Origin: a virus
Virus record (IMG/VR): IMGVR_UViG_3300016665_000619
Location: 1-64,000 of that record
Reading direction: 5' to 3' (one strand)
Length of the DNA stretch: 64,000 nucleotides
Shown here: in pieces, positions 4,750-36,682 of the stretch
Position numbering within the stretch: the stretch's first letter is position 1
How the letters are laid out: every line of letters starts with the position of its first letter
Notes under the pieces: model-generated
What the model saw: the letters and a program-made list of their open reading frames with translations, nothing else
The model's database searches: none
Told to the model about the DNA's origin: nothing
Translations under genes and position numbers: made by a program

Positions 4750-4780
4750 AAAGCCCAGGTTTCCCTGGGCTTTTTGTTTT
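4750..4780. terminator. bidirectional intrinsic terminator
   Basis: AAAGCCCAGG-tttc-CCTGGGCTTTTT between convergent genes. Confidence 0.85.
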
Positions 4781-5993: not shown

Positions 5994-6022
5994 TTTAAAT
6001 ATTCCAAAACCTCTGCTATCCT
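5994..6022 (+). promoter_or_regulatory. sigma70-like promoter (extended -10)
   Basis: TTTAAA, 17-nt spacer ending TGc, then TATCCT. Confidence 0.6.
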
Positions 6023-6053
6023 GTATAGACAAAGTTAAGGAATCAAGGAATCC

Positions 6054-6803
6054 ATGAAGCTCAATCTCGGTCAGCCCTCCGTCAATACCACCACCAACAT
6101 TCTTGATATTGACGTTCCCGCCCAGCTTGAGGAAAACGTTAATACCGGGTTCGCTCATATTGACGCCCTGTTCGCTGGCGACGGCATTACTCCGTCTACC
6201 GCCGCTATCGTTACTGGCATTCCCGGTGCTGGTAAGACTACCCTTATGCTCCAGCTTGCCGATGCTATCACGGGTGCGGGTCATATCGCTCTTTACAATA
6301 CCGGCGAGGAATCGCTTTATCAGGTTCGTAAGGTCGTGCGCCGTCTCGGGCTTGAGAATGGCTTTATCCCTTCCTATGAGTCCTCTGCACAGGATATCGT
6401 GAAGAAGGCAAAGGCTGTTCAGCGTGCCAATCCCGGTAAGCAGGTCTTCCTCTTCGTTGACTCGCTGCAATGCGTTGAGGTTGATCGTGAGAAGGGGCAG
6501 CGTGGTCGTGGTCCCTCGCAGGGTTCCAAGGAGGTCAACGCTACCGAGATCCTTACGCAATGGGCTAAGGAGACGTTCGGCGTTGCCATGATCATCGGTA
6601 TGGTTACGAAGGACGGAACCTTCGCTGGTAAGCAAGCTATCCGCCATATCGTTGATGCTCACCTTCACCTTTCGGTTGACACGGATCGTAAGAGCGATAC
6701 CTACGGGCAGCGCCTCGCCAGCATGGAGAAGAATCGCTTTGGTCAGTCGGGAATTGGCTATACGTATGAGATCAACTCCTCCGGCGTTCACTTTGAGGTT
6801 TGA
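6054..6803 (+). CDS. RadA/Sms-like RecA-family ATPase (ATPase core only)
   Basis: GIPGAGKTT Walker A, YNTGEES, FVDSLQ Walker B, VTKDG.FAG, HIVD, KNRFG motif; lacks the Zn finger and Lon-like domain. Confidence 0.85.
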   Translation: MKLNLGQPSVNTTTNILDIDVPAQLEENVNTGFAHIDALFAGDGITPSTAAIVTGIPGAGKTTLMLQLADAITGAGHIALYNTGEESLYQVRKVVRRLGLENGFIPSYESSAQDIVKKAKAVQRANPGKQVFLFVDSLQCVEVDREKGQRGRGPSQGSKEVNATEILTQWAKETFGVAMIIGMVTKDGTFAGKQAIRHIVDAHLHLSVDTDRKSDTYGQRLASMEKNRFGQSGIGYTYEINSSGVHFEV

Positions 6804-6830
6804 TCCTCTAAACTAAATAAATCTTCCCTT

Positions 6831-6860
6831 AAAGACCTGGCTTCGGCTGGGTCTTTTCTT
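6831..6860 (+). terminator. intrinsic terminator
   Basis: AAAGACCTGGC-TTCG-GCTGGGTCTTTT. Confidence 0.85.
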
Positions 6861-6881
6861 ATTTGCGGCGTATCTATTATT

Positions 6882-7082
6882 ATGAACCAATCTCAAAAAG
6901 ACCTACTCAAAGTATTCCTATGGAGACTTATCTCTATCCCTATCTCCATGTTTACCACTTACCTCTTTACAGGTAGAGCAGACCTATCTCTATCACTTAC
7001 TATCATACTAACTATAGTCCTTACTATAGGTCAATTCTTCTATGAAAAGCTCTGGCGCTATCTACTAAACAATCATATTTAA
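6882..7082 (+). CDS. DUF2061-like small membrane protein
   Basis: LLKVFLWRLIS...YLFTG...FFYEKLW; two TM helices. Confidence 0.65.
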   Translation: MNQSQKDLLKVFLWRLISIPISMFTTYLFTGRADLSLSLTIILTIVLTIGQFFYEKLWRYLLNNHI

Positions 7083-7087
7083 TGGAT

Positions 7088-7792
7088 ATGAAACTACAAT
7101 CCATCCTTTCTTATCTATTAACAGAAAATATCGGCGGCTTATACGAAGACGTTCTTGAAATAGCTAACTACCCAGAAGGCTTCGACATTAACCAATTCAA
7201 AGACCTCCCCTCCTATGCTGCTAAAGCTAGATACCTACGTTCACATGGTCTAGATAAACTAGGTGCTGGTTCCTCTAGAGCTGCCTTTATAGCTGATAAT
7301 GATACCGTCATTAAAGTAGCTAAGAATAAAAAAGGACTAGCTCAAAATAGAGTAGAAGCTAATATCTCCTCTGACGATTTCATGCCAGCTAATGCTCCTC
7401 TCGCTCTCGTTAAAGACCATGACCCAGATTACGTATGGATTGAATCTGAAAGAGCTAGAAGGGCTAAACCTACCGACTTCCAATCTATCGTAGGGTATCC
7501 TATGAAAGACGTTATCAAAACCGTAAGAGAACTAGTTGATAACTATAAAGATAAACGTCAACCAGTAGCCTCTTACTGGTATCTTAAAGATAGAGAACTT
7601 TTTGATCAACTCTCCGAAACACCATTCATTACCGATCTAGTAGATATCATCGTTAACCATGACCTCGAGATGGGTGACATTGATCGTATCTCCTCTTGGG
7701 GTGTAGTCAATCGTAATGGTTCCCAACAACTCGTCCTCATTGACTACGGACTAGACGATCAGGTCTGGAAACAACACTACGCAAGACGGTGA
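7088..7792 (+). CDS. protein-kinase-like fold protein with putative capsid-targeting leader
   Basis: LGAGSSR glycine loop, VIKVA Lys, QN..E helix C, GD, LVLIDYG; leader MKLQSILSYLLTE. Confidence 0.75.
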   Translation: MKLQSILSYLLTENIGGLYEDVLEIANYPEGFDINQFKDLPSYAAKARYLRSHGLDKLGAGSSRAAFIADNDTVIKVAKNKKGLAQNRVEANISSDDFMPANAPLALVKDHDPDYVWIESERARRAKPTDFQSIVGYPMKDVIKTVRELVDNYKDKRQPVASYWYLKDRELFDQLSETPFITDLVDIIVNHDLEMGDIDRISSWGVVNRNGSQQLVLIDYGLDDQVWKQHYARR

Positions 7793-7796
7793 TCAT

Positions 7797-8633
7797 ATGA
7801 CTAATCTATCCACGCTATTAGAATACCTTGATGAAGATATAGATGAAGCAGCTAAATCTGTTCCAGAAGCCATATCAGAAAAACTTGCGGCGTATACTTC
7901 TAATAACTTCATCATACTATATAACCCTCAAACCGCCGTTAACAATAATAAAAAAAATAAACAAAACTATGTTATCTCCTTTCAAAACGCTATAGTAGGA
8001 TATGTCAGATTTGAACCAAATGATGATTGCGACAATAATACCTATGAGGTTAAAAATAGCGCAGCTCTATCTGGTTACGGTCCTCTAATATATGATCTAG
8101 TACTATCTCAAATATATCCAAAATACCTTATTGCTGATAGAAACTCTATCTCTAATAAAGCTCTTAAAGTCTGGGACTTCTATCTCAATAATAGACCCGA
8201 CGTTAATAAACAACTTCTCTCCTCTATCATTGACTATAATCCAGATAACTCCTTTTGCTCTCTACCCGCTGAAGCCTGGAATAAAAGCCGCTCCTTCTCT
8301 AATATTATCTCTAAACTCTCTGTTATCAAAAGAGAACTACAAGATGCTATTGACTTCAATGATGATCCAAAGTCTATCGCTAAACTCCAATCACAACTAG
8401 ATAAAACTAAACAGAAAGCTGAACTCGCTCTTGCTAAAATACCAACAGCTTACAAATATCAAATCAAATCCCCTAAAGGGCTTACTGCACTAAAAAACAA
8501 TCACTTACGTTTCATTCAACTAGTTCCATCCATGTTCCCTAATGCTAATCTATATAAAAACTTCGATCCTAAACAATACGTTGAACAGGCTCTATTAGAC
8601 GAAGCTGAAACCTTCTTCGAAGATATGTATTGA
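7797..8633 (+). CDS. putative GNAT-fold acetyltransferase with putative capsid-targeting leader
   Basis: IVGYVRF...EVKNSAALSGYGPLIYDLVL...LIADRNSISNKALKVW; leader MTNLSTLLEYLDE. Confidence 0.55.
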   Translation: MTNLSTLLEYLDEDIDEAAKSVPEAISEKLAAYTSNNFIILYNPQTAVNNNKKNKQNYVISFQNAIVGYVRFEPNDDCDNNTYEVKNSAALSGYGPLIYDLVLSQIYPKYLIADRNSISNKALKVWDFYLNNRPDVNKQLLSSIIDYNPDNSFCSLPAEAWNKSRSFSNIISKLSVIKRELQDAIDFNDDPKSIAKLQSQLDKTKQKAELALAKIPTAYKYQIKSPKGLTALKNNHLRFIQLVPSMFPNANLYKNFDPKQYVEQALLDEAETFFEDMY

Positions 8634-9143
8634 TTATATCAAATATCCTTATATTTTACAAACGACACACCCACAAACCCTCATATTATCAAGGCTTTTT
8701 ACTGTTTTAAAATATCCCAATAAAATCAACAGTTTCCTCTAAAACCGCATTTATAACGTGTTTTTAAACCCTTGTGCAATAATGGGGCATATTTGATAGG
8801 GTCATATAAGGTAGTATATAGTAAGTTAGGGACAAGACCCCACTAAACAAACTCTTCGGACTATATCACCCCAATAGTTTATAGCTAGCCAGTAGTAGAG
8901 ATATCTCCTAACCCCCCTAAATAAGTTCTAAAGGGGGTGGGGTAGGGGGCTGTTATACCCCCCCTGTGTTTGATGGGGGGCTACCCCCCTACAAGATGTG
9001 TGGGGCTCTCGTTGTGCTGGACGAGGCCATACCCACACACAAAAATTTTTTTGGAATTTTTGGGAATTGACTTTTCCGGGTCAGGGACTGAATATTTATT
9101 GCAAAATTTTTTTGGGAAAAATTTTTTTGGAAATTTTCCGTTG
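8634..9143. other. structured non-coding region; candidate replication origin or genome end
   Basis: Largest intergenic gap; G/C-run inverted repeats at 8911-9040; three copies of AAAATTTTTTTGG; GC skew inverts across it. Confidence 0.6.
9042..9130 (+). repeat. 3 x AAAATTTTTTTGG direct repeats
   Basis: Copies at 9042-9054, 9103-9115 and 9118-9130, plus degenerate AATTTT(T)GG/CC copies. Confidence 0.85.
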
Positions 9144-9157
9144 CTATTTAAGTGGGT

Positions 9158-9760
9158 ATGAAACTAACGAATCTAATAAACTTTTTACTTGAAGAAGAAG
9201 ACTATCGTGGTGTTCACCGGGCGCCTGGAAAGACAAATGGGGCGCCGCTTTGGGACGTAACCAAGGACGTGTATCCGGACGATATATATACATTGCCAGT
9301 AGCTACGGCTGCAAGATACTATGGAGCGAGTGAACCTGGAGATATTACGGTAATGAGTATTATCCGGAGTTATCACAACAAGCCTAATAGTAAGATAAAG
9401 ATATATCGTTCTGTTCCAGATATGAAGACGATAGAGGAAGAGATAGCGGAGTTAGAGGGATATCTGAAACAGATGTTAAGAAGGGGCAGAGCACCGAAGG
9501 GCGTAAGTATGTCATTTGACGAGATATATGCCCGTAAGGAGAAGTTGAAGGCAGATTTAGAGCGGGGCGATGTTTCCCGGCCTAGCAAGATAAAGGATAT
9601 AAATCCTGGTGATTGGGTATCTATCTATCGTCCTTATGTAGTAGAGCATGGTGAGGGAGCATTAGGTGGAGAGTATAAAGTTTTAAGTAAGACGGTATAT
9701 GCGAGAGACTTATATACTGATGGTAATAGCATGTATGAATGGGGATGGGATCCAGCATGA
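9158..9760 (+). CDS. putative ADP-ribosyltransferase-like protein with capsid-targeting leader
   Basis: IKIYRSVP...INPGDWVS...YVVEHG...VLSKTV.ARDLY...YEWGW (R-S-E-like order); leader MKLTNLINFLLEE. Confidence 0.5.
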   Translation: MKLTNLINFLLEEEDYRGVHRAPGKTNGAPLWDVTKDVYPDDIYTLPVATAARYYGASEPGDITVMSIIRSYHNKPNSKIKIYRSVPDMKTIEEEIAELEGYLKQMLRRGRAPKGVSMSFDEIYARKEKLKADLERGDVSRPSKIKDINPGDWVSIYRPYVVEHGEGALGGEYKVLSKTVYARDLYTDGNSMYEWGWDPA

Positions 9761-10707
9761 GAAACAATCTGAAAACATTATTGGGATATTTATTGGAAGA
9801 GGAAACGGTTTCCCAGCGTCCGTTTATGTTATCTATAGATAACCTTGTAGCTCACCGTGATAGTCTATTTGATGCATATGAGCACTGTGTATATCGTAAT
9901 AGATGTTCGGAGAGTTCTGGACCTATAGTAGTAGCAGAGATAGAGGATGGGAAGTATCAGTTAATAGATGGCTATCATCGTTTGATAGAGCATTTATTAG
10001 ATCGTGGTGGATTGGTTCCTATTCATGCTATAGTTGGTGGCGAAGGAACTGGAGAGTATGCTATAGCTCGTGGAGTAGATCGTTGGTTAGGCGATGCATC
10101 TATGAGATATGGTAATCTTGAAGATTTAACGGATGAAGAAACGTTAGAAGGTCATGCCAATAAGCGCAAAAATGCAAAAAAGGGCGATTTATTTGAAAAT
10201 GGGGTTGGCGGGGGCGAAGATATCTGGTATCACACCACATCAAGAGAGAATGCGGAGAAGATCCTTCGTGAAGGATTGAGAATAAATCCAAGTGGTAAAG
10301 GAAAGAGCCGTGCTTCATTGCAATGGATGCCAGAAGCGTATGGAGGTATAACGCCGATCTTTATATCTCGTAAGCCTGGAAGATATGTAAATGGCGTTAT
10401 ATTGAAAGTAGACGTTAGTGGATTGGATTTAGTAGCGGACATACCTGGGTTAGTAGACTTTGATGGTCGTTTAACGGATCATAGTATATATTGGGATGAA
10501 GAAGAGACACCGGAGATAATCTGGGATTTGATGGATCCAGAAACTGGTGAGAGTGTTAATGGTGAGTTAGAGTTTGAATGGTTAAGAGAACCTGGGAATG
10601 ATATATCCAGGGCGGCTATAGAGTTAACTGGGACTGCTGCTGTAATGGAAGACATAGAACCATCCCGTATAGAGTTAACGGAGATGATTGTGGAGAAAAA
10701 CACATGA
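9757..10707 (+). CDS. ParB/Srx-like domain fused to ART/Tpt1-like domain, with capsid-targeting leader
   Basis: PIVV...YQLIDGYHRL (ParB-like); WYHTTSRENAEKILREGL...IFIS...VILKVD (NAD-dependent ART/KptA-like); leader MRNNLKTLLGYLLEE. Confidence 0.6.
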   Translation: MRNNLKTLLGYLLEEETVSQRPFMLSIDNLVAHRDSLFDAYEHCVYRNRCSESSGPIVVAEIEDGKYQLIDGYHRLIEHLLDRGGLVPIHAIVGGEGTGEYAIARGVDRWLGDASMRYGNLEDLTDEETLEGHANKRKNAKKGDLFENGVGGGEDIWYHTTSRENAEKILREGLRINPSGKGKSRASLQWMPEAYGGITPIFISRKPGRYVNGVILKVDVSGLDLVADIPGLVDFDGRLTDHSIYWDEEETPEIIWDLMDPETGESVNGELEFEWLREPGNDISRAAIELTGTAAVMEDIEPSRIELTEMIVEKNT

Positions 10708-11453
10708 AACTTAACAAACTTATAGATTATCTTTTTGAGAACATGGATGAATCTGCCTTACGTGGATTTTCTTTGGATATCTTGAAGAAGGAAACGAAGC
10801 GACTAAAAGCAGAAGATGGATATATAGAAGACATATCATATGGATTGTCTCAACTTGCCGAGAAGTATGATCTACCATATATGGGAAGAGGAAGTTCCCG
10901 AGTTGTATATGCTTTGTCTACTGGCAAGGTATTAAAGATATCCAGGGATGAAAGAGGTCTTGCTCAAACAGAGGCAGAAGTATCTGTATGGACCAATCCT
11001 TCTACGAAAGAAGTAGCGGCACAGGTATTTGATTTTGATCCGGATTTTAACTGGTCTGTCATGGAGATAGCAAAGACGTTTAAGGATCCATATAGTAACT
11101 ATAAGGCATCTCTGGAGCAAGAGCTTGGAATACCTACTGCATATGGAGTAACATTTACAATCGGAGATATTGTTAATGAGCTTTTATCTGATCGTTCTGA
11201 TGGTATAGCTACAGAATCAATACAAGATAAGTTGGCAGAGTTGCCCCGTGGACAAGAGATTGTATTACGTAAGCGTCTTGAGAAGTATTTAGAAAATCCG
11301 CATCCATTTGTTGATAAGATAGCGGATTTGGTTCATAATAATGATTTAGATACAGGCGACATAGTATCTGATCATTTTGGTAAGACTGCTGATGGACGTA
11401 TAGTTTTGATAGACTATGGTTTCACGGAAGCCGTGGCAGAAGAATTCTATTGA
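10704..11453 (+). CDS. protein-kinase-like fold protein with capsid-targeting leader
   Basis: MGRGSSRVVY, KVLKI, WSVME, GDIVSDHFG, VLIDYG; leader MKLNKLIDYLFE. Confidence 0.75.
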   Translation: MKLNKLIDYLFENMDESALRGFSLDILKKETKRLKAEDGYIEDISYGLSQLAEKYDLPYMGRGSSRVVYALSTGKVLKISRDERGLAQTEAEVSVWTNPSTKEVAAQVFDFDPDFNWSVMEIAKTFKDPYSNYKASLEQELGIPTAYGVTFTIGDIVNELLSDRSDGIATESIQDKLAELPRGQEIVLRKRLEKYLENPHPFVDKIADLVHNNDLDTGDIVSDHFGKTADGRIVLIDYGFTEAVAEEFY

Positions 11454-11467
11454 AAATATTTAAAGCT

Positions 11468-12316
11468 ATGAAACTCAAGAACTTATTAAACTATTTGTTA
11501 GAGAATGTAGATGAAGGTGCGCTTCGTGGTTTCTCATTGGATATTCTTAAGAAGAAGATGCCAGAGTTTGAGAAGTATGGATATCCGGAAAGCATTGGAC
11601 GCCAAATAAGAAACCTGGTTGATGGACAATACAAGCTTCCATATATGGGAGTTGGCAGTTCCCGCATTGTGTATGCATTATCTACCGGTAAAGTATTGAA
11701 GATAGCATTGAATGATAAGGGTGTTGCCCAGAATCAAGCCGAGCATGAGGTATCCAGAGATCCATCATTAAAATATATTGGCGCTCGAGTATATGAGACA
11801 GATCCAAACTATTATTGGTCTGTAATGGAAGTAGCAAAGATATATGAGAGTAGCACGGATCTCAAGTTAGATTTAGGAATACCAAAGAATTTATCTGAAC
11901 GTTGGAATTATGAAATACGTAAAGCAATAGAAGATTTAAGATCAATCTATAATCTGGGATATAATGTTGAAGACGTTATAGAAAGAAGATATGATAGTGA
12001 TGATCTTGGAGATGGTGATCCAGATTTTGATGAAGACAAGGAAGCTTTTAGAAAGTTTTTAGAGAATCCGCCAAAGGGATTGTTAGCTCTTGTAGATTTA
12101 ACAGATACGGGTCTTGGTGGACATTCATTAGAAATGGGCGATATAGTTACGGATCACTTTGGTAAGACAGCAGATGGTCGTCCTGTATTGATAGATTATG
12201 GATTTACTACAGGAGTAGCTGAAGGTTATTATCGTAGTGATAGTAACTCATATGGTTCCCCGCCGCCTTCATCTATAATGAGTCAAGATGAAGAAGAAGA
12301 TGTGCTTTTTGTGTGA
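11468..12316 (+). CDS. protein-kinase-like fold protein (close paralog of 10704..11453)
   Basis: MGVGSSRIVY, KVLKI, GDIVTDHFG, VLIDYG; leader MKLKNLLNYLLE. Confidence 0.75.
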   Translation: MKLKNLLNYLLENVDEGALRGFSLDILKKKMPEFEKYGYPESIGRQIRNLVDGQYKLPYMGVGSSRIVYALSTGKVLKIALNDKGVAQNQAEHEVSRDPSLKYIGARVYETDPNYYWSVMEVAKIYESSTDLKLDLGIPKNLSERWNYEIRKAIEDLRSIYNLGYNVEDVIERRYDSDDLGDGDPDFDEDKEAFRKFLENPPKGLLALVDLTDTGLGGHSLEMGDIVTDHFGKTADGRPVLIDYGFTTGVAEGYYRSDSNSYGSPPPSSIMSQDEEEDVLFV

Positions 12317-12405
12317 TGCCTATAGAGATAGCATTATATTATGCAGCGATTGGATTGAGTTTATTTGGTTGGTTATTTTTTTGGATTACAGACGAAACTA
12401 ACTGA
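12316..12405 (+). CDS. possible 29-aa membrane peptide
   Basis: TGATG coupling; MPIEIALYYAAIGLSLFGWLFFWITDETN*. Confidence 0.35.
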   Translation: MPIEIALYYAAIGLSLFGWLFFWITDETN

Positions 12406-12432
12406 ACTATAATAGTGTATAGAGGTAATAAC

Positions 12433-13020
12433 ATGAATAAAGGAACCATAGTTCAAATCGTATTGTTTTCGATATTGTTAGTTGGTGCTGTAGTAGGAAT
12501 AATATACGGAGCAACCAATCATTCAGAAGCTGGAATGATGAACATATGTTGGAGTAGAGGTGGCATAGCCGACTATTCTTGCACCGAGGGTGGTGAACCA
12601 GTTCGTTGGAATCATTCTCCTTTAATGGTTGGAGCAGACGGAGAAGAGTCTGCTGTTCGTTCAGCCGTAAGTTTGATTAATGGTCAAGTTGGTTGTGAGG
12701 TATTGGTATATGCTCCAACTGGCGGGATTGATATTAATATAAGAACCGAAGGTGCTCTTGGTGGTGGTAATGAGCGTGGTGGTTCAACAAGCCATATAAG
12801 AGACATTAATGGCAACATGAGAGCCAATATAGAGTTATATGCACCTGGTTCAATATTGAGAAGAGTATTGGTTCATGAGTTAGGTCATGCACTTGGATTA
12901 GCACATGATGATTACAGAAGTTCTATTATGTATCCGACTCAAGAAGGCGTAACAAATATGGATATGATACAATTCAGCGAGAGTGATCGTGCGTTATTGC
13001 GTGATAGTTATTGTCGCTGA
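12433..13020 (+). CDS. membrane-anchored matrixin-like (M10) zinc metalloprotease
   Basis: N-terminal TM helix; HELGHALGLAH zinc motif; SIMYP Met-turn; AGAGG RBS. Confidence 0.85.
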   Translation: MNKGTIVQIVLFSILLVGAVVGIIYGATNHSEAGMMNICWSRGGIADYSCTEGGEPVRWNHSPLMVGADGEESAVRSAVSLINGQVGCEVLVYAPTGGIDINIRTEGALGGGNERGGSTSHIRDINGNMRANIELYAPGSILRRVLVHELGHALGLAHDDYRSSIMYPTQEGVTNMDMIQFSESDRALLRDSYCR

Positions 13021-13031
13021 TATTTAAGTTC

Positions 13032-15896
13032 ATGGCATATCCATTAAAAAGACATACAAAAACAAGTTATAATGCATCTGGTTTCGTTTCTTATCAAAAT
13101 ATAGAAATGGATAAGATGTATTATATGCCAGTTATAACTGACGAGGCTAATAACTACTGGACAATTAACATATTCAATCCTGTCAATAATACTGTCGTAT
13201 TATCATTAAGTGACTGCGAGATAAGAGCAGGATATAGACTATTAATAACGGAATTAATTGTTGATAGTGTTAGCAAGTATCACATACACGTATTCAATCC
13301 TGAAAACGTCTTGATATTAGATTTAGACGTTGATTCCGATGAATACGCATTAGAAAGTTTGAAATTTGTTAATTCTGCTTATATCCGTCCAGTAGCAGCT
13401 CCAGCTAAACCAAGTGCTTTAACTGCTGTTGTTATTAGCAAGAATGAAATATTGTTAAGCTGGAATGATAATTCAAATAACGAAGCTTCTTTCGTTATTC
13501 AAAGAAGTTTGAATGGAACTTTGTGGTCAGAAGTAGCTAGCGTTAATGAAAATGTTACTAGTTATTCGGATACTGGTTTAAGTCCAGCGACCTCTTATCA
13601 GTATAGAGTTGTTGCCAGAAACTCATATGGAGATTCTTCTCCGACAACAAAATATATAGCAACCACATTACCAAAGATTCCTACTGGTCCATCTAATTTG
13701 ATTATCAAAAACGTATCTCAAACTGAAGTTGAATTCAATTGGCTTGATAATTCTGATAATGAAGATGGATATGTAGTTCAAAGAAGTTTGGATGCGACTA
13801 ACTGGACAACTGTTGCAACATTAGCAACTCCAAACGTCGAAACATATACTGATACAGGGTTAAGTGCTGGAACAAAATATTACTATAGAGTGTATGCATA
13901 TAATACAGGCGGCAATTCTGAATCAATTACTGAAAGCGTTACAACATTACGTAATGCGCCTGTTGCTCCAAGTGGATTGAACTCAATAGTTTCTGGTTTG
14001 GATATAACATTAAGTTGGTCAGACAATTCTGGAACTGAAAATGGATTTAAGATTGAACGTTCTCTGTATGGAAGTAAAGTATTCCAGCAGATAGCGACCG
14101 TAAATTCTGACGTTAGTTTATATACAGATACCAACTTGTCATCTGCAACTCAATATGAATATCGTATCAGAGCTTATAATGAAATAGGCAATTCTGCATA
14201 TTCAAATACGATATCTGCAACTACAATGGCTACTCCTAATGCTCCTACGAATTTGGTAGGCACAGCTATAACAGAATCACGCATTGATATAAATTGGGAC
14301 GACAATTCTCTAGACGAAACTATATTCAAAGTTGAGAGAAGTGATGATTCTGGAGCAACATGGACACAAATTGCTACAACGTTAGCAGATGAAGCTTCAT
14401 ATAAAGATTATAGCGTAACTACAGGAATAACATATTCTTATCGTGTTAGAGCTTATAATGCAGTTGGCAATTCTGCATATTCAAATATAATATCATTATC
14501 GCCACTTTCAGTTCCATTGGCGCCAAGTAACTTGGCAGCTAATACTGTTTCTGATACTTCTATTTCCATATCTTGGACAGATAATTCAGACAATGAAGTT
14601 GGATTCAAGTTACAGAGAAGTTTGGACGGTATTAGCTCTTGGAACAATGTATATACAGCTTTAGAAGGCGAGACAAATTATACAGATACTGGATTGACAC
14701 ATTCTACCACATATCACTATAGAATATTTGCGTATAATGACATTGGGGAATCAAGTTACAGCGATACAGCAGAAGCAACCACTAATCTACAAACTCCTAC
14801 CAATCTTGAAGGAACAGTTTCTGGTCTTAACATTGGATTGACTTGGAATTACGATTTAAGCAGTCAAAATGGATTTAAGATTGAAAGAAGCTTGTATGGT
14901 AGTAAAGTTTGGTCTGAAATTGCAACCGTTGCAGCACAAACCACATCATATGATGATGAAAACTTAGGTTCTGGCACAAGATACGAATATCGTATAAGGG
15001 CATATAATATAAACGGTCAATCAAGTTATAGTAACATTATAGATGTTACAACAATGGTTGCTCCTTCAGCACCATCTGAATTCATTGGTTTTGAGGATTC
15101 TCAAAACGGATACATTGAGTTTATGTGGTCCGACCTATTGGATGAAACCGGTTATATCTTGGAAAGAAGCGATAATGGTGGTAACACGTGGTCAGTATTA
15201 GCAAATATAGCTGCTGATGAAATTAACTACAAAGATTATACGGCAGCACCAGGAGTTTCTTATTCTTATAGAATTAAGGGATATAATGCAGTTGGAGATG
15301 GAGAATATTCATCGGTATTGAATTTGAGTTTGCCAGGAGTTCCAGATGCTCCAAGTAATCTAGTTGCTACAGTTGCAGGTTCAGCTCAGATTAATCTAAC
15401 ATGGACAGACAACTCTGACGATGAAGTTGGATTTAAACTTCAAAGAACTACAGATCCAAGCAATTCATCATCATGGGGAACAATATATACTGCTCAAGCA
15501 GGAGAGACAAGTTATAGTGACACCGGTCTTAATGGCTCTACATCATATTACTATAGAGTATTTGCATATAATAACATTGGAAATTCAAGTTATAGTAATG
15601 AATCAGATGCTAAAACATATCTAAGTGCTCCAATTAACGTTGCGGCTACAAGTCCAAATAATACGTATATTTTAGTTACATGGGAAAATGCGGCAGCATC
15701 AACAACAGGATTCAAAGTTGAGAGATATGCTTCCAATACAAAGGTTTGGGTAGAAGTTGCAAATTTTGGAGCAAACAAATTTGAATATGAAGATAGTGAT
15801 GTTGTCTTGGGAAGAACTTATTCTTATCGTGTAAGAGCATACGATGCTGATAGCACATCTGACTATTCTGCGACAGTTATACAGTCTATCACTTAA
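13032..15896 (+). CDS. fibronectin type III repeat protein (~9 FN3 domains), likely virion surface
   Basis: Repeated P.APS.L...I.L.W.DNS.NE.GF.I.RS...W...Y.DTGL...Y.YRV.AYN..G.S.YS units. Confidence 0.9.
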   Translation: MAYPLKRHTKTSYNASGFVSYQNIEMDKMYYMPVITDEANNYWTINIFNPVNNTVVLSLSDCEIRAGYRLLITELIVDSVSKYHIHVFNPENVLILDLDVDSDEYALESLKFVNSAYIRPVAAPAKPSALTAVVISKNEILLSWNDNSNNEASFVIQRSLNGTLWSEVASVNENVTSYSDTGLSPATSYQYRVVARNSYGDSSPTTKYIATTLPKIPTGPSNLIIKNVSQTEVEFNWLDNSDNEDGYVVQRSLDATNWTTVATLATPNVETYTDTGLSAGTKYYYRVYAYNTGGNSESITESVTTLRNAPVAPSGLNSIVSGLDITLSWSDNSGTENGFKIERSLYGSKVFQQIATVNSDVSLYTDTNLSSATQYEYRIRAYNEIGNSAYSNTISATTMATPNAPTNLVGTAITESRIDINWDDNSLDETIFKVERSDDSGATWTQIATTLADEASYKDYSVTTGITYSYRVRAYNAVGNSAYSNIISLSPLSVPLAPSNLAANTVSDTSISISWTDNSDNEVGFKLQRSLDGISSWNNVYTALEGETNYTDTGLTHSTTYHYRIFAYNDIGESSYSDTAEATTNLQTPTNLEGTVSGLNIGLTWNYDLSSQNGFKIERSLYGSKVWSEIATVAAQTTSYDDENLGSGTRYEYRIRAYNINGQSSYSNIIDVTTMVAPSAPSEFIGFEDSQNGYIEFMWSDLLDETGYILERSDNGGNTWSVLANIAADEINYKDYTAAPGVSYSYRIKGYNAVGDGEYSSVLNLSLPGVPDAPSNLVATVAGSAQINLTWTDNSDDEVGFKLQRTTDPSNSSSWGTIYTAQAGETSYSDTGLNGSTSYYYRVFAYNNIGNSSYSNESDAKTYLSAPINVAATSPNNTYILVTWENAAASTTGFKVERYASNTKVWVEVANFGANKFEYEDSDVVLGRTYSYRVRAYDADSTSDYSATVIQSIT

Positions 15897-15929
15897 TCTT
15901 TATCTTAATGGAATAGATTAGGAGAGTTT

Positions 15930-16235
15930 ATGTTAACTGGAAAAATGGCATCTGGTGTTGAAAGGGTGTTTCGTCCTGTGCGTGTAAATGGATATGTTGG
16001 CAATCAACTATATCAAGAAGTGTTCATGCATTATTTGCATTTTTTGAATGAAGATGGGACGGTTCGCAAAAGCAAGCTTGATAGAATGGAGAATGGTAAA
16101 ATCTGGATGGAAAGCACCGGTCAGAGGTCTTTATATGGAGAATGTGAATATACATTTCCTGATGGAACAAAAAAGCGCCTGATCCTTTTGGGAACAGACG
16201 CTCGTGGTAATCCAATGATTCCAGGTGTTATGTGA
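15930..16235 (+). CDS. hypothetical protein
   Basis: AGGAGAG RBS before the ATG. Confidence 0.6.
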   Translation: MLTGKMASGVERVFRPVRVNGYVGNQLYQEVFMHYLHFLNEDGTVRKSKLDRMENGKIWMESTGQRSLYGECEYTFPDGTKKRLILLGTDARGNPMIPGVM

Positions 16236-16237
16236 TA

Positions 16238-16567
16238 TCAATCTTTACCTGGTAGAATAAGCGAAGGAGTGTTAGAACGTTCTAGTGTTGGAGATACTGG
16301 GACGTTTTTTCTATTTTCTCCAATGGCTTTAACAATTGATTTCATTGCTTTGTTATCTTCCAGTTCAAGAGATAGGAGATAGATGATATAAAGCATTTGA
16401 CGTTGGGATACGCCAAACTTACGTATTTCCATAACGATATCTCTACAGTCTTTACGTTTACTAACTGGTAGTTCAAGTTCGATATTAGGCTGAATATATT
16501 CTTCGCCTTCTTGTGCTTCTTCTGTTAGGAGACTATCCCATTCACCAGTTTTATTTTCCTCTGTCAT
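16238..16567 (-). CDS. hypothetical protein
   Basis: ATGA-coupled to the upstream gene. Confidence 0.75.
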   Translation of the reverse strand: MTEENKTGEWDSLLTEEAQEGEEYIQPNIELELPVSKRKDCRDIVMEIRKFGVSQRQMLYIIYLLSLELEDNKAMKSIVKAIGENRKNVPVSPTLERSNTPSLILPGKD

Positions 16568-17034
16568 ATCATTCCTTCTTCTCTTTCAAATGATTTAATA
16601 TCATAAATGGTTTCACCAAGAATGACAATATATTTTCCTATAATGGTTGTTCCTTCTCGTTCTTGAGAAAGATTGAATCCCCTGCCCCATAGACCATTAG
16701 CTATAATGAACTGAGCTTCCTGCCAGTATGGCAGGTCACATTGATTTTGTTCTAATATAGAGGCTAATCTGGGAGGTAAGGATGATTTAATATCATCTAT
16801 GGTTAATAGAGCATTCATATTCTCTTTACGGAGAACGATGCTTTTGCTTATTTCATTTATCTTATGAATAACGCCGCAGTTATTGCATTGAGCATATGAT
16901 GGAACGACTGAACCATCTGCCGTATTAATTTCTGAGAATACTAAGAACTTATGAAAGACAGGTGGTTCTACGTTCTTATATTGAGGAAGAACGCATTTAC
17001 ATTCAAGGAGATGTTTTACATAATCTTTGGTCAT
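16564..17034 (-). CDS. hypothetical zinc-ribbon protein
   Basis: ECKC...QCNNCG pairs. Confidence 0.75.
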   Translation of the reverse strand: MTKDYVKHLLECKCVLPQYKNVEPPVFHKFLVFSEINTADGSVVPSYAQCNNCGVIHKINEISKSIVLRKENMNALLTIDDIKSSLPPRLASILEQNQCDLPYWQEAQFIIANGLWGRGFNLSQEREGTTIIGKYIVILGETIYDIKSFEREEGMI

Positions 17035-35311: not shown

Positions 35312-35355
35312 TAATCCCGGCTATTAAGGTTAATCCTTAATAACTGAATAATCAG

Positions 35356-35390
35356 TATCGGGGGGTAGAAATACCCCCCGATATTTTTTT
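35356..35390 (+). terminator. intrinsic terminator
   Basis: TATCGGGGGGTA-GAAA-TACCCCCCGATA followed by T7. Confidence 0.9.
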
Positions 35391-35503
35391 GCTTACAATA
35401 TATTGTGTATAATGTTATAAAGTTAATCTATATGTGGTGGTGTGGAACCCTACCAATTAGAAGAGGGTATATAACCTAACTCCTATCCCGTATACCATAT
35501 GTC

Positions 35504-36682
35504 ATGGACAGACAAACGGTTAAAAACTTTATCCTCTCTAATGAGTTATTCCTTCTACCCCTACAATCCGTAAAGGACGGTCGTTGCACATGTAATAATC
35601 CCGCATGTAGTTCTCCAGGCAAGCATCCACTCTTAAAGTATTCATGGAAGCACGTAGCCACTAATGACCCACAAAAGATTGAAAAGTGGTTAGGTATGGA
35701 GAATATAAACTATGGTGTAGCTACTGGAAGAAAGACCAGTAATGGGAACCGATTGTTTGTTATTGATATAGACGCCGAAGATCATCCCCTATTACGTTTA
35801 ATGCCTTTAGAAACCTTCCATTATCGGACGGGTAGTGGTGGGTGGCATTTCTGGTTTCAGACGCCTTACAGCGTATCTAATAGCGCCAGTAAAGTAGCTC
35901 CACAGGTAGACGTGAGAGGATATGGAGGATATGTTGTTATCCCTCCCAGTCGTCATATCTCTGGCGGCGTATATACTGCTGACTTCGCAAATAACATACA
36001 GATTGCAAGCAAATATATTTTGGACTTGGTATTTTCTAAAGAGAAACGCACCAAGGAAGATAAAAAAATAAGGGAAGTTCAAAATTTAAATTTGGGCAAC
36101 CTTATTTCTTCCGAAGAAAATAAAAATCTACAAGAATGGACCAAGGGATCCATTACTCAGATACGTAAGTGGTTAGTTGAAGGTAAATATATTCCTAATG
36201 GCGCTCGTAACATAGTATTACACAGATTATTGTCATCAGATAGAGCCAAAGGTTTTAATCTTACAGAACTTAAAAAATCTGCTGCAATATATCGTTCTCA
36301 ATGTGTTAATGCAGATAACATTTCAGATAGAGAATTGACGGTATTAATTGGTCAAGTTATCAAATATCCAACTTATAACACTTCACATGAGAAAGTTAAT
36401 GAAGCTTTCTTTGATGCAATGAAGAGAGCAAAAAAACCTGTATCAGAAGACAAACAAGAACTTATAAAAGATTTGGATAGAAAGTTCTTTGATAGTCTTA
36501 AGAGAACCGACGAAGGAATGTCATTAACTTTGCTTATGGGAGAAAGAGACAAGCTGTTATCTACAAATCTGGATAAGTTCAGCAAATATCCAGCGCATTT
36601 GTTTGCAGCCAAGTTAAAGTCTCTTGGGTTTGAAAGATATAGAACAGCAAAAGGAAACTTTTGGAACTGTGTTATAATCTGA
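35504..36682 (+). CDS. bifunctional DNA primase/polymerase (Prim-Pol) with PriCT-like region
   Basis: CTC...C.SPGKHP, NYGVATG, VIDID, TGSGGWH, DVRGYGGYVVIPPSRH.SG..Y, G.RN..L. Confidence 0.9.
   Translation: MDRQTVKNFILSNELFLLPLQSVKDGRCTCNNPACSSPGKHPLLKYSWKHVATNDPQKIEKWLGMENINYGVATGRKTSNGNRLFVIDIDAEDHPLLRLMPLETFHYRTGSGGWHFWFQTPYSVSNSASKVAPQVDVRGYGGYVVIPPSRHISGGVYTADFANNIQIASKYILDLVFSKEKRTKEDKKIREVQNLNLGNLISSEENKNLQEWTKGSITQIRKWLVEGKYIPNGARNIVLHRLLSSDRAKGFNLTELKKSAAIYRSQCVNADNISDRELTVLIGQVIKYPTYNTSHEKVNEAFFDAMKRAKKPVSEDKQELIKDLDRKFFDSLKRTDEGMSLTLLMGERDKLLSTNLDKFSKYPAHLFAAKLKSLGFERYRTAKGNFWNCVII

Follow-up and report, generated by a model that had tools for sequence, protein, structure and literature searches.

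Organisation of the locus

The 64,000-nt stretch of DNA analysed here (the window) originates from an uncultured giant freshwater phage, and is part of a 91,087-nt contig representing a fragment of a larger genome. Contig-wide skew figures refer to the 91,087-nt contig, i.e. to part of the genome only, and uniqueness of motifs is given for the 64-kb window or the 91-kb contig, as stated. The following features were identified in and around a long gene-free spacer:

4750-4773 (no strand assigned): strong two-way terminator hairpin at a convergent junction, with a ten-pair stem and T-rich tails on both strands
6882-8633 (plus strand): left block of genes for a DUF2061 membrane protein, a kinase-like protein and a 278-aa leader-bearing protein; third positions G-poor and C-rich
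8634-9151 (no strand assigned): whole gene-free spacer, 518 nt, the longest non-coding gap of the 91-kb contig, with the sign change of the bias inside
8654-8690 (plus strand): conserved left-edge block, TTTTACAAACGACACAC ... TCATATT, with invariant columns in a three-way alignment
8905-8992 (no strand assigned): alternating cluster of C-runs and G-runs, the skew pivot by its run positions and the cumulative minimum at 8917
8988-9040 (no strand assigned): core with the highest conservation, TACAAGATGTGTGGGG ... CCCACACAC, forming an inverted repeat with arms of ~9 bp and a loop of ~26 nt
9040-9135 (plus strand): A/T-tract repeat zone, ~70% A+T, with repeats and units conserved in relatives
9144-9160 (plus strand): CTATTTAAGTGGGTATG, ending close to the first right-hand gene and carrying, a few bases upstream of its start, a TATTTAAG box that resembles a late promoter
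9152-12316 (plus strand): right block of genes for a 202-aa protein, a 322-aa protein and two kinase-like paralogs; third positions G-rich and C-poor
16274-16308 (plus strand): strong rightward terminator, with a counterpart in the related locus L007 at 16673-16708

The spacer was several times longer than any other spacer of the genome. Another long gap, at 79194-80125, turned out to be coding, with an ORF starting at 79195.

The relatives compared were the loci L007 (the closest relative, covered by the first 20.6 kb of the 183-kb contig VFQT010000061.1), L016, L020, L017, L013, L030 and L024, together with X3 and X4. Relatives of 90-97% identity are present in many sequencing runs. Comparison of 6800-12400 with INPHARED phages gave zero DNA matches. 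In IMG/VR, zero matches were obtained for the 278-aa gene product, the 202-aa product matched only distant, non-syntenic loci, and an exact-pattern scan for the TTGAC core returned chance matches within unrelated genes only.

The earlier note had considered that the site might be an assembly chimera. This was rejected, as contigs of four studies run across the site: the contig of the source run covers 6000-10217 with zero differences, and contigs of three further studies cross the spacer (8167-9077, 8705-9210 and 8976-9616). These independent assemblies join both sides, which excludes a chimera as the source of the compositional flip.

Position and size of the skew flip

The plus strand had previously been described as C-rich on the left (8221-8280, with 19 C and 8 G) and G-rich on the right (9421-9480, with 20 G and 4 C), and these counts are exact. 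The cumulative GC skew across the 91,087-nt contig had its minimum at 8917, as the earlier note had predicted for a site near 8.9 kb. The right-minus-left jump in GC skew at the spacer was +0.55 (1.5-kb windows, z = 5.3), when the runner-up in the contig reached +0.21. The fading of the skew, likewise noticed earlier, was confirmed, the bias being lost or broken within ~4 kb leftward and 4-8 kb rightward.

The flip was present in the non-coding DNA itself. The left half of the spacer (8634-8917) had a GC skew of -0.28 and an AT skew of +0.07, and the right half (8918-9151) values of +0.22 and -0.18, respectively. A C-to-G flip was found inside the homologous spacer of two relatives, with the minimum at 9741 in L007 (spacer halves -0.51 and +0.44) and at 3294 in L016 (-0.44 and +0.45). 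Thus, a cumulative minimum at which the top strand turns from C-rich to G-rich, as in skew-defined bidirectional origins, was observed in three lineages (window, L007 and L016), with the non-coding halves mirroring each other in both GC and AT skew.

Flanking genes and codon usage

All flanking genes were on the plus strand, as the earlier note stated, and the kinase paralogs that it placed on either side are real (kinase-like, 25% identity, E = 8e-15, same PHROG). The s3 values were -0.58, -0.62 and -0.67 in the left block, and +0.47, +0.42, +0.41 and +0.33 in the right block. At 4-fold sites, the frequencies of G and C were 0.025 and 0.238 in the left block (C/(C+T) 0.45, G/(G+A) 0.08), 0.157 and 0.102 in the right block (C/(C+T) 0.18, G/(G+A) 0.47), and 0.069 and 0.129 in the rest of the genome (C/(C+T) 0.28, G/(G+A) 0.29). 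The two ratios shift oppositely on the two sides, i.e. the changes are transitions at synonymous sites.

The left block uses C-ending pyrimidine codons and A-ending purine codons, with T exceeding A at 4-fold sites, and its codon usage matches that of the tail-fibre, PhoH and other genes of the genome. The C-richness of the left genes also fits an ordinary, optimised codon usage of this genome. Among the window genes, A/T at the left block was not the mirror of the right block. Due to this unmirrored A/T and the usage shared with other genes, such as that of the tail fibre, selection possibly accounts for some of the flip on its left side.

The 202-aa protein of the right block belongs to a 'ParB C-terminal' PHROG, and a profile search of the PDB with its family returned no relative. 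In the 322-aa protein, the motif LIDGYHRL recalls the ParB N-terminal domain when judged by eye, and Pfam gives no family. The neighbours comprise a RadA-like ATPase, a membrane protein, kinase-like proteins and ParB-like proteins with leaders. Rep, O, DnaA and helicase-loader families were not found among them, and neither an initiator nor a polymerase gene was adjacent to the spacer; the prim-pol gene (35504-36682) is 26 kb distant.

Anatomy of the spacer

Scans of the spacer with Rfam and for tRNAs gave no family and no tRNA. A known structured RNA gene was rejected on the basis of the Rfam result, a consensus fold of -8.5 kcal/mol to which covariation contributes -0.5, and a main stem that is mostly unchanged. 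A small ORF of 24 codons (8998-9072) was likewise discarded, as its substitutions are mostly non-synonymous and its frame is broken in the alignment with L020, L017 and L013. No DnaA boxes were found near the site.

The conserved block at the left edge resembles a putative rightward promoter of sigma-70 type, with TTTACA and, in the relatives, the -10-like TATCAT or TATTCA. The promoter scan gave ACGACA-16-TATTAT for the window and TTTACA-18-TATCAT for the corresponding position of L007.

The pivot cluster consists of runs of C6 (8912), G5 (8933), G4 (8939), G5 (8945), C7 (8958), G6 (8975) and C6 (8984), which could form three or four G:C hairpins, or alternatively a G-quadruplex on the plus strand. 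The inverted repeats listed in the earlier note are exact (ACCCCC 8911 / GGGGGT 8933; GTAGGGGG 8942 / CCCCCTAC 8985; TGTGTGGG 8997 / CCCACACA 9032), and its four G-tracts were located at 8933, 8939, 8945 and 8975, constituting the sole three-tract G-quadruplex-like motif in 91 kb. Across the 91-kb contig, runs of at least six G or C occur only in the spacer and in one terminator, at 35360-35379. When the region was folded, as the earlier note proposed, 8820-9045 folded better than shuffled sequences on the minus strand (z = -2.67), but no better on the plus strand (z = -0.64). In the relatives, G/C runs are retained at this position, with varying sequence and indels, and 8867-8904 is missing in X3 and X4.

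Rightward of the core, the three repeats of the 13-mer AAAATTTTTTTGG were found at 9042, 9103 and 9118, as described earlier; the 13-mer is absent elsewhere in the window, and the 91-kb contig otherwise has 2-mismatch variants only. Four units of TTTTTGG(G)AA are present in 9040-9135, and TTGACT at 9067 follows an A5T7 tract resembling an UP element. Of the promoter-like sites, the conserved TTTACA block is upstream of the G-tracts and the TTGAC box with its UP-like tract is downstream. The zone is a candidate for an unwinding or protein-binding site, or for a strong promoter. The term 'iteron-like', as used in the earlier note, fits in part only, each unit being a brief A/T tract that terminates in GG(G)AA.

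The CTATTTAAGTGGGTATG block before the first right-hand gene is identical in L007 and nearly so in L016. The 9-mer TATTTAAG occurs again at 13021.

Conservation in related loci

As the earlier note suggested checking, the spacer element was sought in relatives and is present in six loci. Sixteen bases of the core 8988-9040 are identical in the window, L007 and L016, although identity of the flanking protein in L016 is, according to the aligner used, only ~50-70%, and the nhmmer profile recovered the core in L020, L017 and L013 as well. Conservation of the 3' 180 nt of the spacer exceeds that of the neighbouring proteins. The three exact 13-mers and the four TTTTTGG(G)AA units, which themselves make up the A/T-rich zone, are conserved in six loci, and 6/6 homologous elements, including that of L013 with 52% GC, contain repeated GG(G)AAA(A)TTTT units. 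The -10 part of the promoter-like box in this zone was not conserved in the relatives. In the hairpin 8995-9040 the stem is mostly kept with almost zero double changes, and thus conservation of the core is at the level of sequence; the near lack of compensatory changes lends little weight to the large hairpin as an RNA structure.

Divergence at 4-fold sites is near saturation (identity of 0.46-0.50 between the window and L016, ~0.33 being random), and skew is of opposite sign in orthologs with 75-80% amino-acid identity where they differ in the position of the domain boundary. Consequently, polarity is set by position and actively maintained. Likewise, the same place of the flip in three nearly saturated lineages, together with the mirrored non-coding halves, means that the flip is maintained and not a relic.

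These observations bear on the possibility that no local process operates, i.e. that a regulatory gap of the ordinary kind separates two gene modules differing in history or expression class. The left module would have optimised codons, and the right one would have been imported from, or recombined with, phages of extreme strand bias; alternatively, the flip would mark an old inversion breakpoint. The usage shared by the left block and the tail-fibre, PhoH and other genes is compatible with this, and so is the hyperplastic nature of the region, in which 7086-7794 (the left kinase-like gene) is absent, and 10218-10736 absent or replaced, in the relatives. Furthermore, the FN3-repeat gene (13011-15896) forms an unskewed island, and adjacent co-oriented paralogs in L024 differ in skew amplitude (-0.76 vs -0.15). 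Against it stand the homologous flip point in lineages near synonymous saturation, the bias in non-coding DNA on both sides, the skew of orthologs following the side of the boundary, strand-level bias within single gene families, and the combination of G-ending purine with T-ending pyrimidine codons, which is no known selected usage. The L007 domain is not flanked by inverted repeats, and with polarity kept across saturated lineages, a recent inversion was rejected as the main cause. Altogether, an explanation with no local process appears improbable.

Bias of the DNA strand

In the relatives, the bias belongs to the DNA strand and not to the gene. To the right of the element, genes of both orientations have a common plus-strand composition, with 4-fold C of ~0.05 and G of ~0.27. 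In L030, the plus-strand 4-fold frequencies of ten minus-strand and two plus-strand genes were, respectively,.24 and.25 for A,.05 and.05 for C,.28 and.26 for G, and.44 and.44 for T. Plus-strand composition right of the element was equal irrespective of orientation also in L020 and L017, where leader-bearing paralogs of one family have opposite usage by strand. A Pfam-confirmed phosphoesterase gene on the minus strand, inside the G-rich domain of L007, had plus-strand 4-fold C of 0.00 and G of 0.34. Across the loci, the coding skews of neighbouring genes were correlated negatively in opposite orientation (r = -0.61, n = 85) and positively in the same orientation (r = +0.57, n = 283). Orientation-independent bias, another property of skew-defined bidirectional origins, was accordingly found in L007, L020, L017 and L030. 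With the bias residing at synonymous and non-coding sites, and being strand-level in relatives, the view of the earlier note that neither gene orientation nor protein composition explains the flip was upheld.

The element is not always accompanied by skew, as L013, which is syntenic, carries the element and shows none.

Limits of the skewed domains and a possible role of transcription

The C-rich domain has its outer left limit at the terminator at 4750-4773; the skew takes its largest step down on that side at ~4700, and the L007 counterpart of this boundary is at 4.48 kb. On the right, the L007 counterpart of the rightward terminator (16673-16708) is a perfect 17+17 palindrome, and the G-rich domain ends precisely there, with the cumulative-skew maximum at 16676. 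Polarity in L007 flips again there, at 16.7 kb, which is ~7 kb right of the element. Replichore-long polarity was not observed: the strong bias lasts 4-8 kb, as seen on a contig that is a fragment of the genome.

Since the skewed domains end at strong terminators and polarity reverses 7 kb off in a relative, transcription is the main rival to replication as the process behind the flip. According to such an explanation, the spacer would hold strong outward promoters, mainly rightward and early, and intense transcription of the infecting genome, its R-loops promoted by the G-tracts, would expose the non-template strand with no replication role, so that the G/T-rich strand would extend over one transcription unit per side, embedded antisense genes included. 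T4 'anti-late' RNA is a precedent for genes lying antisense within a transcription unit. Besides the domain limits at terminators and convergent junctions in both the window and L007, this is consistent with the strongly skewed genes of L007, most of which, in either orientation, have a G/T-rich coding strand, with the conserved TTTACA block and the conserved TTGAC box after its A5T7 tract, and with 9152-16274, in which no significant plus-strand terminator was found. In addition, a tie between R-loops and positive GC skew downstream of promoters is reported (PMC3787257).

Transcription alone fits several other observations poorly. The spacer has no conserved leftward promoter-like site, yet its left non-coding half is C/A-rich in three lineages, and rightward firing of the promoter-like block at the left edge predicts a G/T-rich left half, which is not seen. 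In L030, the supposed transcript would run antisense to 10/12 genes across 10 kb, and the leader-bearing paralogs of L020 and L017 differ in usage according to strand within one family. Conservation does not extend to the -10 regions. The magnitude of the bias (4-fold C of 0-0.05 vs G of 0.2-0.34) is far above known transcription effects, and is of the order known for single-strand exposure in the replication of mitochondrial DNA. On balance, transcription as the only process is considered less likely than a replication start, though strong outward transcription would be able to produce the same pattern.

Compared with transcription-associated asymmetry at R-loop-prone promoters (PMC3787257), the locus is alike in the positive skew past a promoter-like region with a G-cluster and in its terminator-bounded domains, whereas its amplitude is many times larger, antisense genes are fully complementary, and the left half is mirrored with no conserved leftward promoter. 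The spacer also recalls one that combines a Rho-independent terminator and a promoter, having G:C hairpins as in the terminator of this phage at 35355-35392, followed by promoter-like boxes and the TATTTAAG box. In contrast to such spacers, the hairpins have no proper T tails (a single weak match at 8945-8962), conservation exceeds that of the flanking genes, and the bias pivots.

A possible replication-start zone

The compositional flip is genuine, resides in the DNA strand, is maintained, and has a conserved non-coding element at its centre. The best single explanation, held tentatively and short of an even chance, is that the spacer is a replication-start zone, perhaps transcript-primed. 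The origin proposed in the earlier note is favoured by the skew pivot within a conserved non-coding element in three lineages, but neither an initiator gene nor a DnaA box accompanies it and the domains extend for a few kb. The anatomy suits an origin as far as can be read from the DNA, i.e. the sole G-quadruplex-like motif, almost the only G6/C6 runs, and adjoining A/T-rich repeats. A syntenic gene for a RadA-like recombination ATPase on the left is likewise in keeping with an origin. For huge phages, inferring origins from GC skew is an accepted approach (Al-Shayeb et al. 2020, PMC7162821). Counting against an origin are the short plateaus, which are not replichores, the second flip in L007, which a single origin does not predict, and the presence of the element in L013 with no skew. 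Outward transcription accounts about equally well for these points, and for the C-rich codon usage of the left genes.

As a replication-start zone, the spacer would be a conserved cis-acting element where phage DNA repeatedly opens, leaving one strand single-stranded on each side. Synthesis would start at or beside the G/C-run hairpin cluster (8905-9040), perhaps primed by a transcript forming an R-loop over the G-tracts, and the flanking A/T-tract repeats would serve as an easily melted or protein-bound zone. Rightward synthesis would displace the plus strand and leftward synthesis the minus strand, and deamination (C to T, A to G) may deplete the displaced strand of C and A. The plus strand would gradually become G/T-rich rightward and C/A-rich leftward, regardless of gene direction. 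Replication as the process, transcript priming, and deamination of displaced DNA as the mutational cause are each inferred.

Similarity to skew-defined origins, such as bacterial oriC and those of huge phages (PMC7162821), is seen in the C-to-G switch at the minimum, in the synonymous, non-coding and orientation-independent nature of the bias, and in a pivot within a non-coding region with A/T-rich repeats. The locus differs from these in that the bias extends for a few kb per side instead of whole replichores, is locally far stronger, and flips back 7 kb off in a relative; DnaA boxes and an adjacent initiator gene were not found on this incomplete genome.

Transcript-primed (R-loop) origins include T4 oriF and oriG, ColE1, and the heavy-strand origin of vertebrate mtDNA with its G-rich conserved sequence block. 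Judged from sequence alone, the spacer is like these in having promoter-like boxes near a G-tract cluster capable of holding a quadruplex or an RNA-DNA hybrid, a meltable A/T zone, a strand that would be exposed downstream, and a 4-fold asymmetry of mitochondrial magnitude, whereas its best conserved promoter-like box is downstream of the G-tracts and no sequence similarity was seen. Iteron origins, which have iterons of 17-22 nt, are found in lambda (ori), SPP1 (oriL) and many plasmids. The likeness to these consists of direct repeats adjoining an A/T-rich stretch of a conserved non-coding element, but here the repeats are 13-nt A/T tracts ending in GG(G)AA in three to five copies, and there is no recognisable initiator gene within or beside the element.

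Two further processes could produce a local polarity of this kind. A site-specific double-strand cut, made by a terminase at a pac site or by an endonuclease, would repeatedly start recombination-dependent outward synthesis of break-induced type, and its nascent or displaced single strands would give a local, origin-like polarity. The domain is indeed local, covering a few kb, a RadA-like recombination (branch-migration) ATPase gene is syntenic on the left side, and the genome is T4-like in its baseplate and leader-bearing proteins; T4 replicates mostly by recombination. By reasoning, strand invasion and extension directed outward should leave the polarity that is observed, but simple 5'-3' resection predicts the opposite polarity near the cut. 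The 91-kb contig lacks a terminase gene, a homing endonuclease does not adjoin the spacer, and the contigs of four studies cross the site with no joint or loose end centred there, although contigs cannot show molecule ends. For the same reasons, the packaging site or genome end offered as an alternative in the earlier note is unsupported, assemblies running through and a terminase gene being absent nearby. A break site is regarded as very doubtful.

Equally doubtful is that the G-quadruplex and hairpin zone starts a short, strand-specific hypermutation domain and not a genome-scale origin. Exposure would then extend a few kb to each side via R-loops, abortive 'onion-skin' initiation or break-induced synthesis, and the exposed stretch would coincide exactly with arrays of rapidly evolving effector genes, which bear leaders and whose products are probably packaged in the virion. 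The cassettes would be diversified in a manner comparable to the switch and hypermutation regions of vertebrate immunoglobulins.

Implications for giant phages

To our knowledge, next to nothing is established about where replication starts in uncultured giant phages, whose origins tend to be guessed from skew plots of whole genomes. For the present phage, one particular conserved non-coding element can now be pointed out and put to the test. The bias surrounding this element stands out by its mitochondrial strength, its independence of gene direction, and its kb-scale domains bounded by terminators, with orthologs switching codon usage by side. If transcription or local hypermutation is the cause, local single-strand exposure can dominate phage codon usage, with consequences for gene calling, codon-based host prediction, and estimates of evolutionary rate in effector cassettes. 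If, instead, replication starts at the spacer, the element would provide a handle on the initiation of DNA synthesis in these phages, and a cis element for vectors or host-free replication assays.

Source contig and the skew switch

The window forms the initial 64 kb of one contig of 91,087 nt, which was filed as a virus record and originates from freshwater metagenomes, with near-identical or 90–97% similar DNA in runs of at least 11 studies. Nearly all genes are on the plus strand, and the gene content includes a prim-pol, PhoH, a chaperonin-like gene, tail-fibre and baseplate-wedge genes, and a large glycan gene cluster. With this content, and with no terminase, portal or capsid genes found on the 91-kb contig, the sequence is therefore taken to be part of a longer, T4-like “giant” phage genome. 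No relative was found in INPHARED.

The cumulative GC-skew minimum of the whole contig was at 8917, within the interval 8634–9150 for which an earlier note had proposed a replication origin or genome end, and all numbers in that note were correct on re-check. In 1.5-kb windows the right-minus-left skew reached +0.55 at about 9050, the next-biggest upward step on the contig being +0.21. No other non-coding stretch on the contig is as long as the 518-nt gap 8634–9151 (other gaps ≤240 nt), which contains the single three-tract G-quadruplex-like motif in 91 kb, three copies of the 13-mer AAAATTTTTTTGG present nowhere else, and five of the contig's seven sites with at least six consecutive G or C, the other two forming a terminator after the tail-fibre gene. 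An assembly artefact was ruled out, as the contig of the source run spans 6000–10217 without difference and contigs of three other studies bridge the spacer. Neither an initiator gene nor a DnaA box was found near the spacer, no Rfam family matched within it, and it held no ORF conserved across relatives.

The terminator at 35355–35392 is of textbook form (G6/C6 stem, T7 tail), is located between the 1459-aa tail-fibre gene and the prim-pol gene, and is the sole site outside the spacer with G6 or C6 runs. A second candidate long spacer, 79195–80160 (1195–2160 in L002), was rejected as coding; its 321-codon ORF had been overlooked by a simple longest-ORF caller because its earliest potential start codon overlaps the gene before it.

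Conservation of the spacer element

Eighty metagenome loci were retrieved with a profile built on the 202-aa protein whose gene (9152–9760) adjoins the spacer on its right. This protein matches the PHROG “ParB C-terminal domain”, carries invariant YRGxH, YPDD and HG motifs, and belongs to a family of over 100 homolog clusters in freshwater metagenomes; no Pfam family or solved relative was found for it. The gene order of the window recurs in the loci L007/L008 (89% protein identity, 183-kb contig) and L016 (about 50%), where the C-to-G flip is also present and the local cumulative minimum falls within the homologous spacer. The spacer is alignable among these three lineages, its last 180 nt outdoing the neighbouring proteins in conservation, and its large hairpin is kept mainly at the sequence level. 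A profile of the last 180 nt also matched ahead of the homologous gene in loci L020 and L017 and in syntenic L013, of 52% GC, which shares the spacer element and the genes downstream of it at much higher G+C and is devoid of strand bias.

Conserved pieces of the spacer, from left to right
Piece 1: left-edge block TTTTACAA.CGACACAC ... TCAT
Piece 2: G-run/C-run cluster, variable
Piece 3: core TACAAGATGTGTGGGG ... CCCACACAC
Piece 4: series of A/T tracts ending GG(G)AA, including TTGAC
Piece 5: TATTTAAG, immediately ahead of the start codon

Codon-position composition of the flanking genes

In the window the strand bias is a third-codon-position effect, and in the 4-fold and two-fold figures the left and right blocks differ from the genome elsewhere by transitions in opposite directions.

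Composition of left genes (6882–8633), right genes (9152–12316) and the rest of the genome
Third-position GC skew: left −0.58 to −0.67; right +0.33 to +0.47
4-fold G: left 0.025; right 0.157; rest 0.069
4-fold C: left 0.238; right 0.102; rest 0.129
C/(C+T), two-fold pyrimidine codons: left 0.45; right 0.18; rest 0.28
G/(G+A), two-fold purine codons: left 0.08; right 0.47; rest 0.29

Kinase-like paralogs left and right of the spacer (25% identity, E = 8e-15) have the same opposed third-position usage as their blocks, which excludes protein composition as the cause of the skew, as the earlier note had held. The left-gene codon usage is common to the tail-fibre, PhoH and several other genes in either orientation, and part of the coding C-richness left of the spacer may be ordinary translational selection. 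Since T exceeds A at the 4-fold sites of the left genes, the left block does not mirror the G-rich right one, which stands out more clearly as anomalous. Within the G-rich domain, a gene for a 961-aa protein with tandem FN3-like repeats (13011–15896) has a third-position skew of only −0.06, its short L007 counterpart having +0.63, and may be a recent arrival or have undergone recent repeat expansion.

Leader-bearing genes

Six genes sharing an N-terminal leader (7082–12316) are gained and lost as whole cassettes. The kinase-like gene 7086–7794 is exactly missing in L007 and in relatives from metagenome runs X3 and X4 (joint 7085>7795, where the gene starts have 6 nt in common), and 10218–10736 is replaced in relatives by 10 other letters (joint 10217>10737); recombination in or beside the shared leader codons may drive these changes. 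In related freshwater phage contigs (L020, L023, L024, L030, L059, L061, L065), arrays in which up to twelve genes share a lineage-specific leader, including MKLxxILFE, MIKLKDLLxE, MKNFKNWLLTEE and MSWYK, are common on both strands, often with ART-, GNAT- or FHA-like domains, and are the most strongly strand-biased genes of each locus.

Bias follows the strand

The strand bias is a property of the DNA strand and not of the gene. In L030, plus-strand 4-fold composition was nearly the same in ten minus-strand and two plus-strand genes (A.24/.25, C.05/.05, G.28/.26, T.44/.44), several of the former having Pfam domains or the N-terminal leader of the family. Right of the element in L020 and L017, leader-bearing paralogs in both orientations all have a G-rich plus strand, and a minus-strand calcineurin-like phosphoesterase gene in the G-rich domain of L007 (Pfam E = 2.6e-17) has plus-strand C at 0 of 93 4-fold sites. 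Across all loci, coding-strand skew was anticorrelated between opposite-orientation neighbours (r = −0.61, n = 85) and positively correlated between same-orientation neighbours (r = +0.57, n = 283). The non-coding spacer halves were mirrored in three lineages, with GC skews left and right of −0.28 and +0.22 (window), −0.51 and +0.44 (L007), and −0.44 and +0.45 (L016), values somewhat inflated by placing the split points at minima; the left halves have a slight excess of A over T, and the right halves an excess of T over A.

The polarity is also upheld over time. Identity at 4-fold sites was 37–77% between the window and L007 and 46–50% between the window and L016, about 33% being expected for unrelated sequence of like composition. 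Minus-strand orthologs at 16238–17034 in the window and 16639–17426 in L007 share 75–80% protein identity and have opposite third-position GC skews (−0.20 and −0.33 against +0.50 and +0.67), the L007 genes lying past a domain boundary and those of the window not; this is a natural experiment in which codon usage follows genomic position. With 4-fold sites near saturation, orthologs of opposed skew, and no inverted repeats found flanking the L007 domain, polarity is set by position and actively maintained, and neither an old inversion nor a simple mosaic junction fits this well. A passive module boundary is a minor and improbable alternative.

Domain limits and transcription

Strong bias is confined to plateaus of a few kb. 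The L007 plus strand is C-rich at 4.48–9.46 kb, G-rich from 10.0 to about 15.5–16.6 kb, and then strongly C-rich again, and the outer edges fall at convergent junctions and strong terminators.

Boundary sites
L007 16673–16708: perfect 17+17 palindrome (34 nt, EcoRI site at centre) with a T-rich tail, within the 3′-terminal part of a minus-strand gene, precisely where the G-rich domain stops (cumulative maximum 16676)
Window 16274–16308: homologue, degenerate palindrome copy
Window 4750–4773: homologue of an L007 boundary terminator

In both genomes the palindrome site is a rightward terminator situated within a convergent gene. Domains bounded in this manner are the expected look of two divergent transcription units, and strong outward transcription with no replication role ranks second among the readings, somewhat less likely than a replication start. 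Against it, no leftward promoter-like site is conserved in the spacer, the polarity of the left non-coding half is the reverse of that expected from the conserved rightward promoter-like block, and L030 would require a transcript antisense to 10 of 12 genes. The amplitude of the bias, far above known transcription effects, also counts against transcription alone.

Interpretation

GC skew has previously served to propose origins for huge phages (PMC7162821). Of the origin or genome-end proposal, the flip itself stands, as a real, strand-level switch at a conserved non-coding element, and a replication start is retained as the most likely reading only. The element is tentatively viewed as a replication-initiation zone, possibly transcript-primed. 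The few-kb plateaus, the left-block usage shared with other genes, the unbiased L013, and the lack of a nearby initiator gene or DnaA box argue against a plain origin. A recombination or packaging break site is a minor alternative of low probability.

This kind of feature is already known; new here are the element, the bounded kb-scale domains and the strength of the bias, and the finding is real and of more interest than a skew plot would indicate. In at least three long-diverged giant freshwater phage lineages, one or other DNA strand has been preferentially exposed starting from a conserved, structured non-coding element, and comparison of L013 with the A/T-rich lineages could reveal the cause of the bias.
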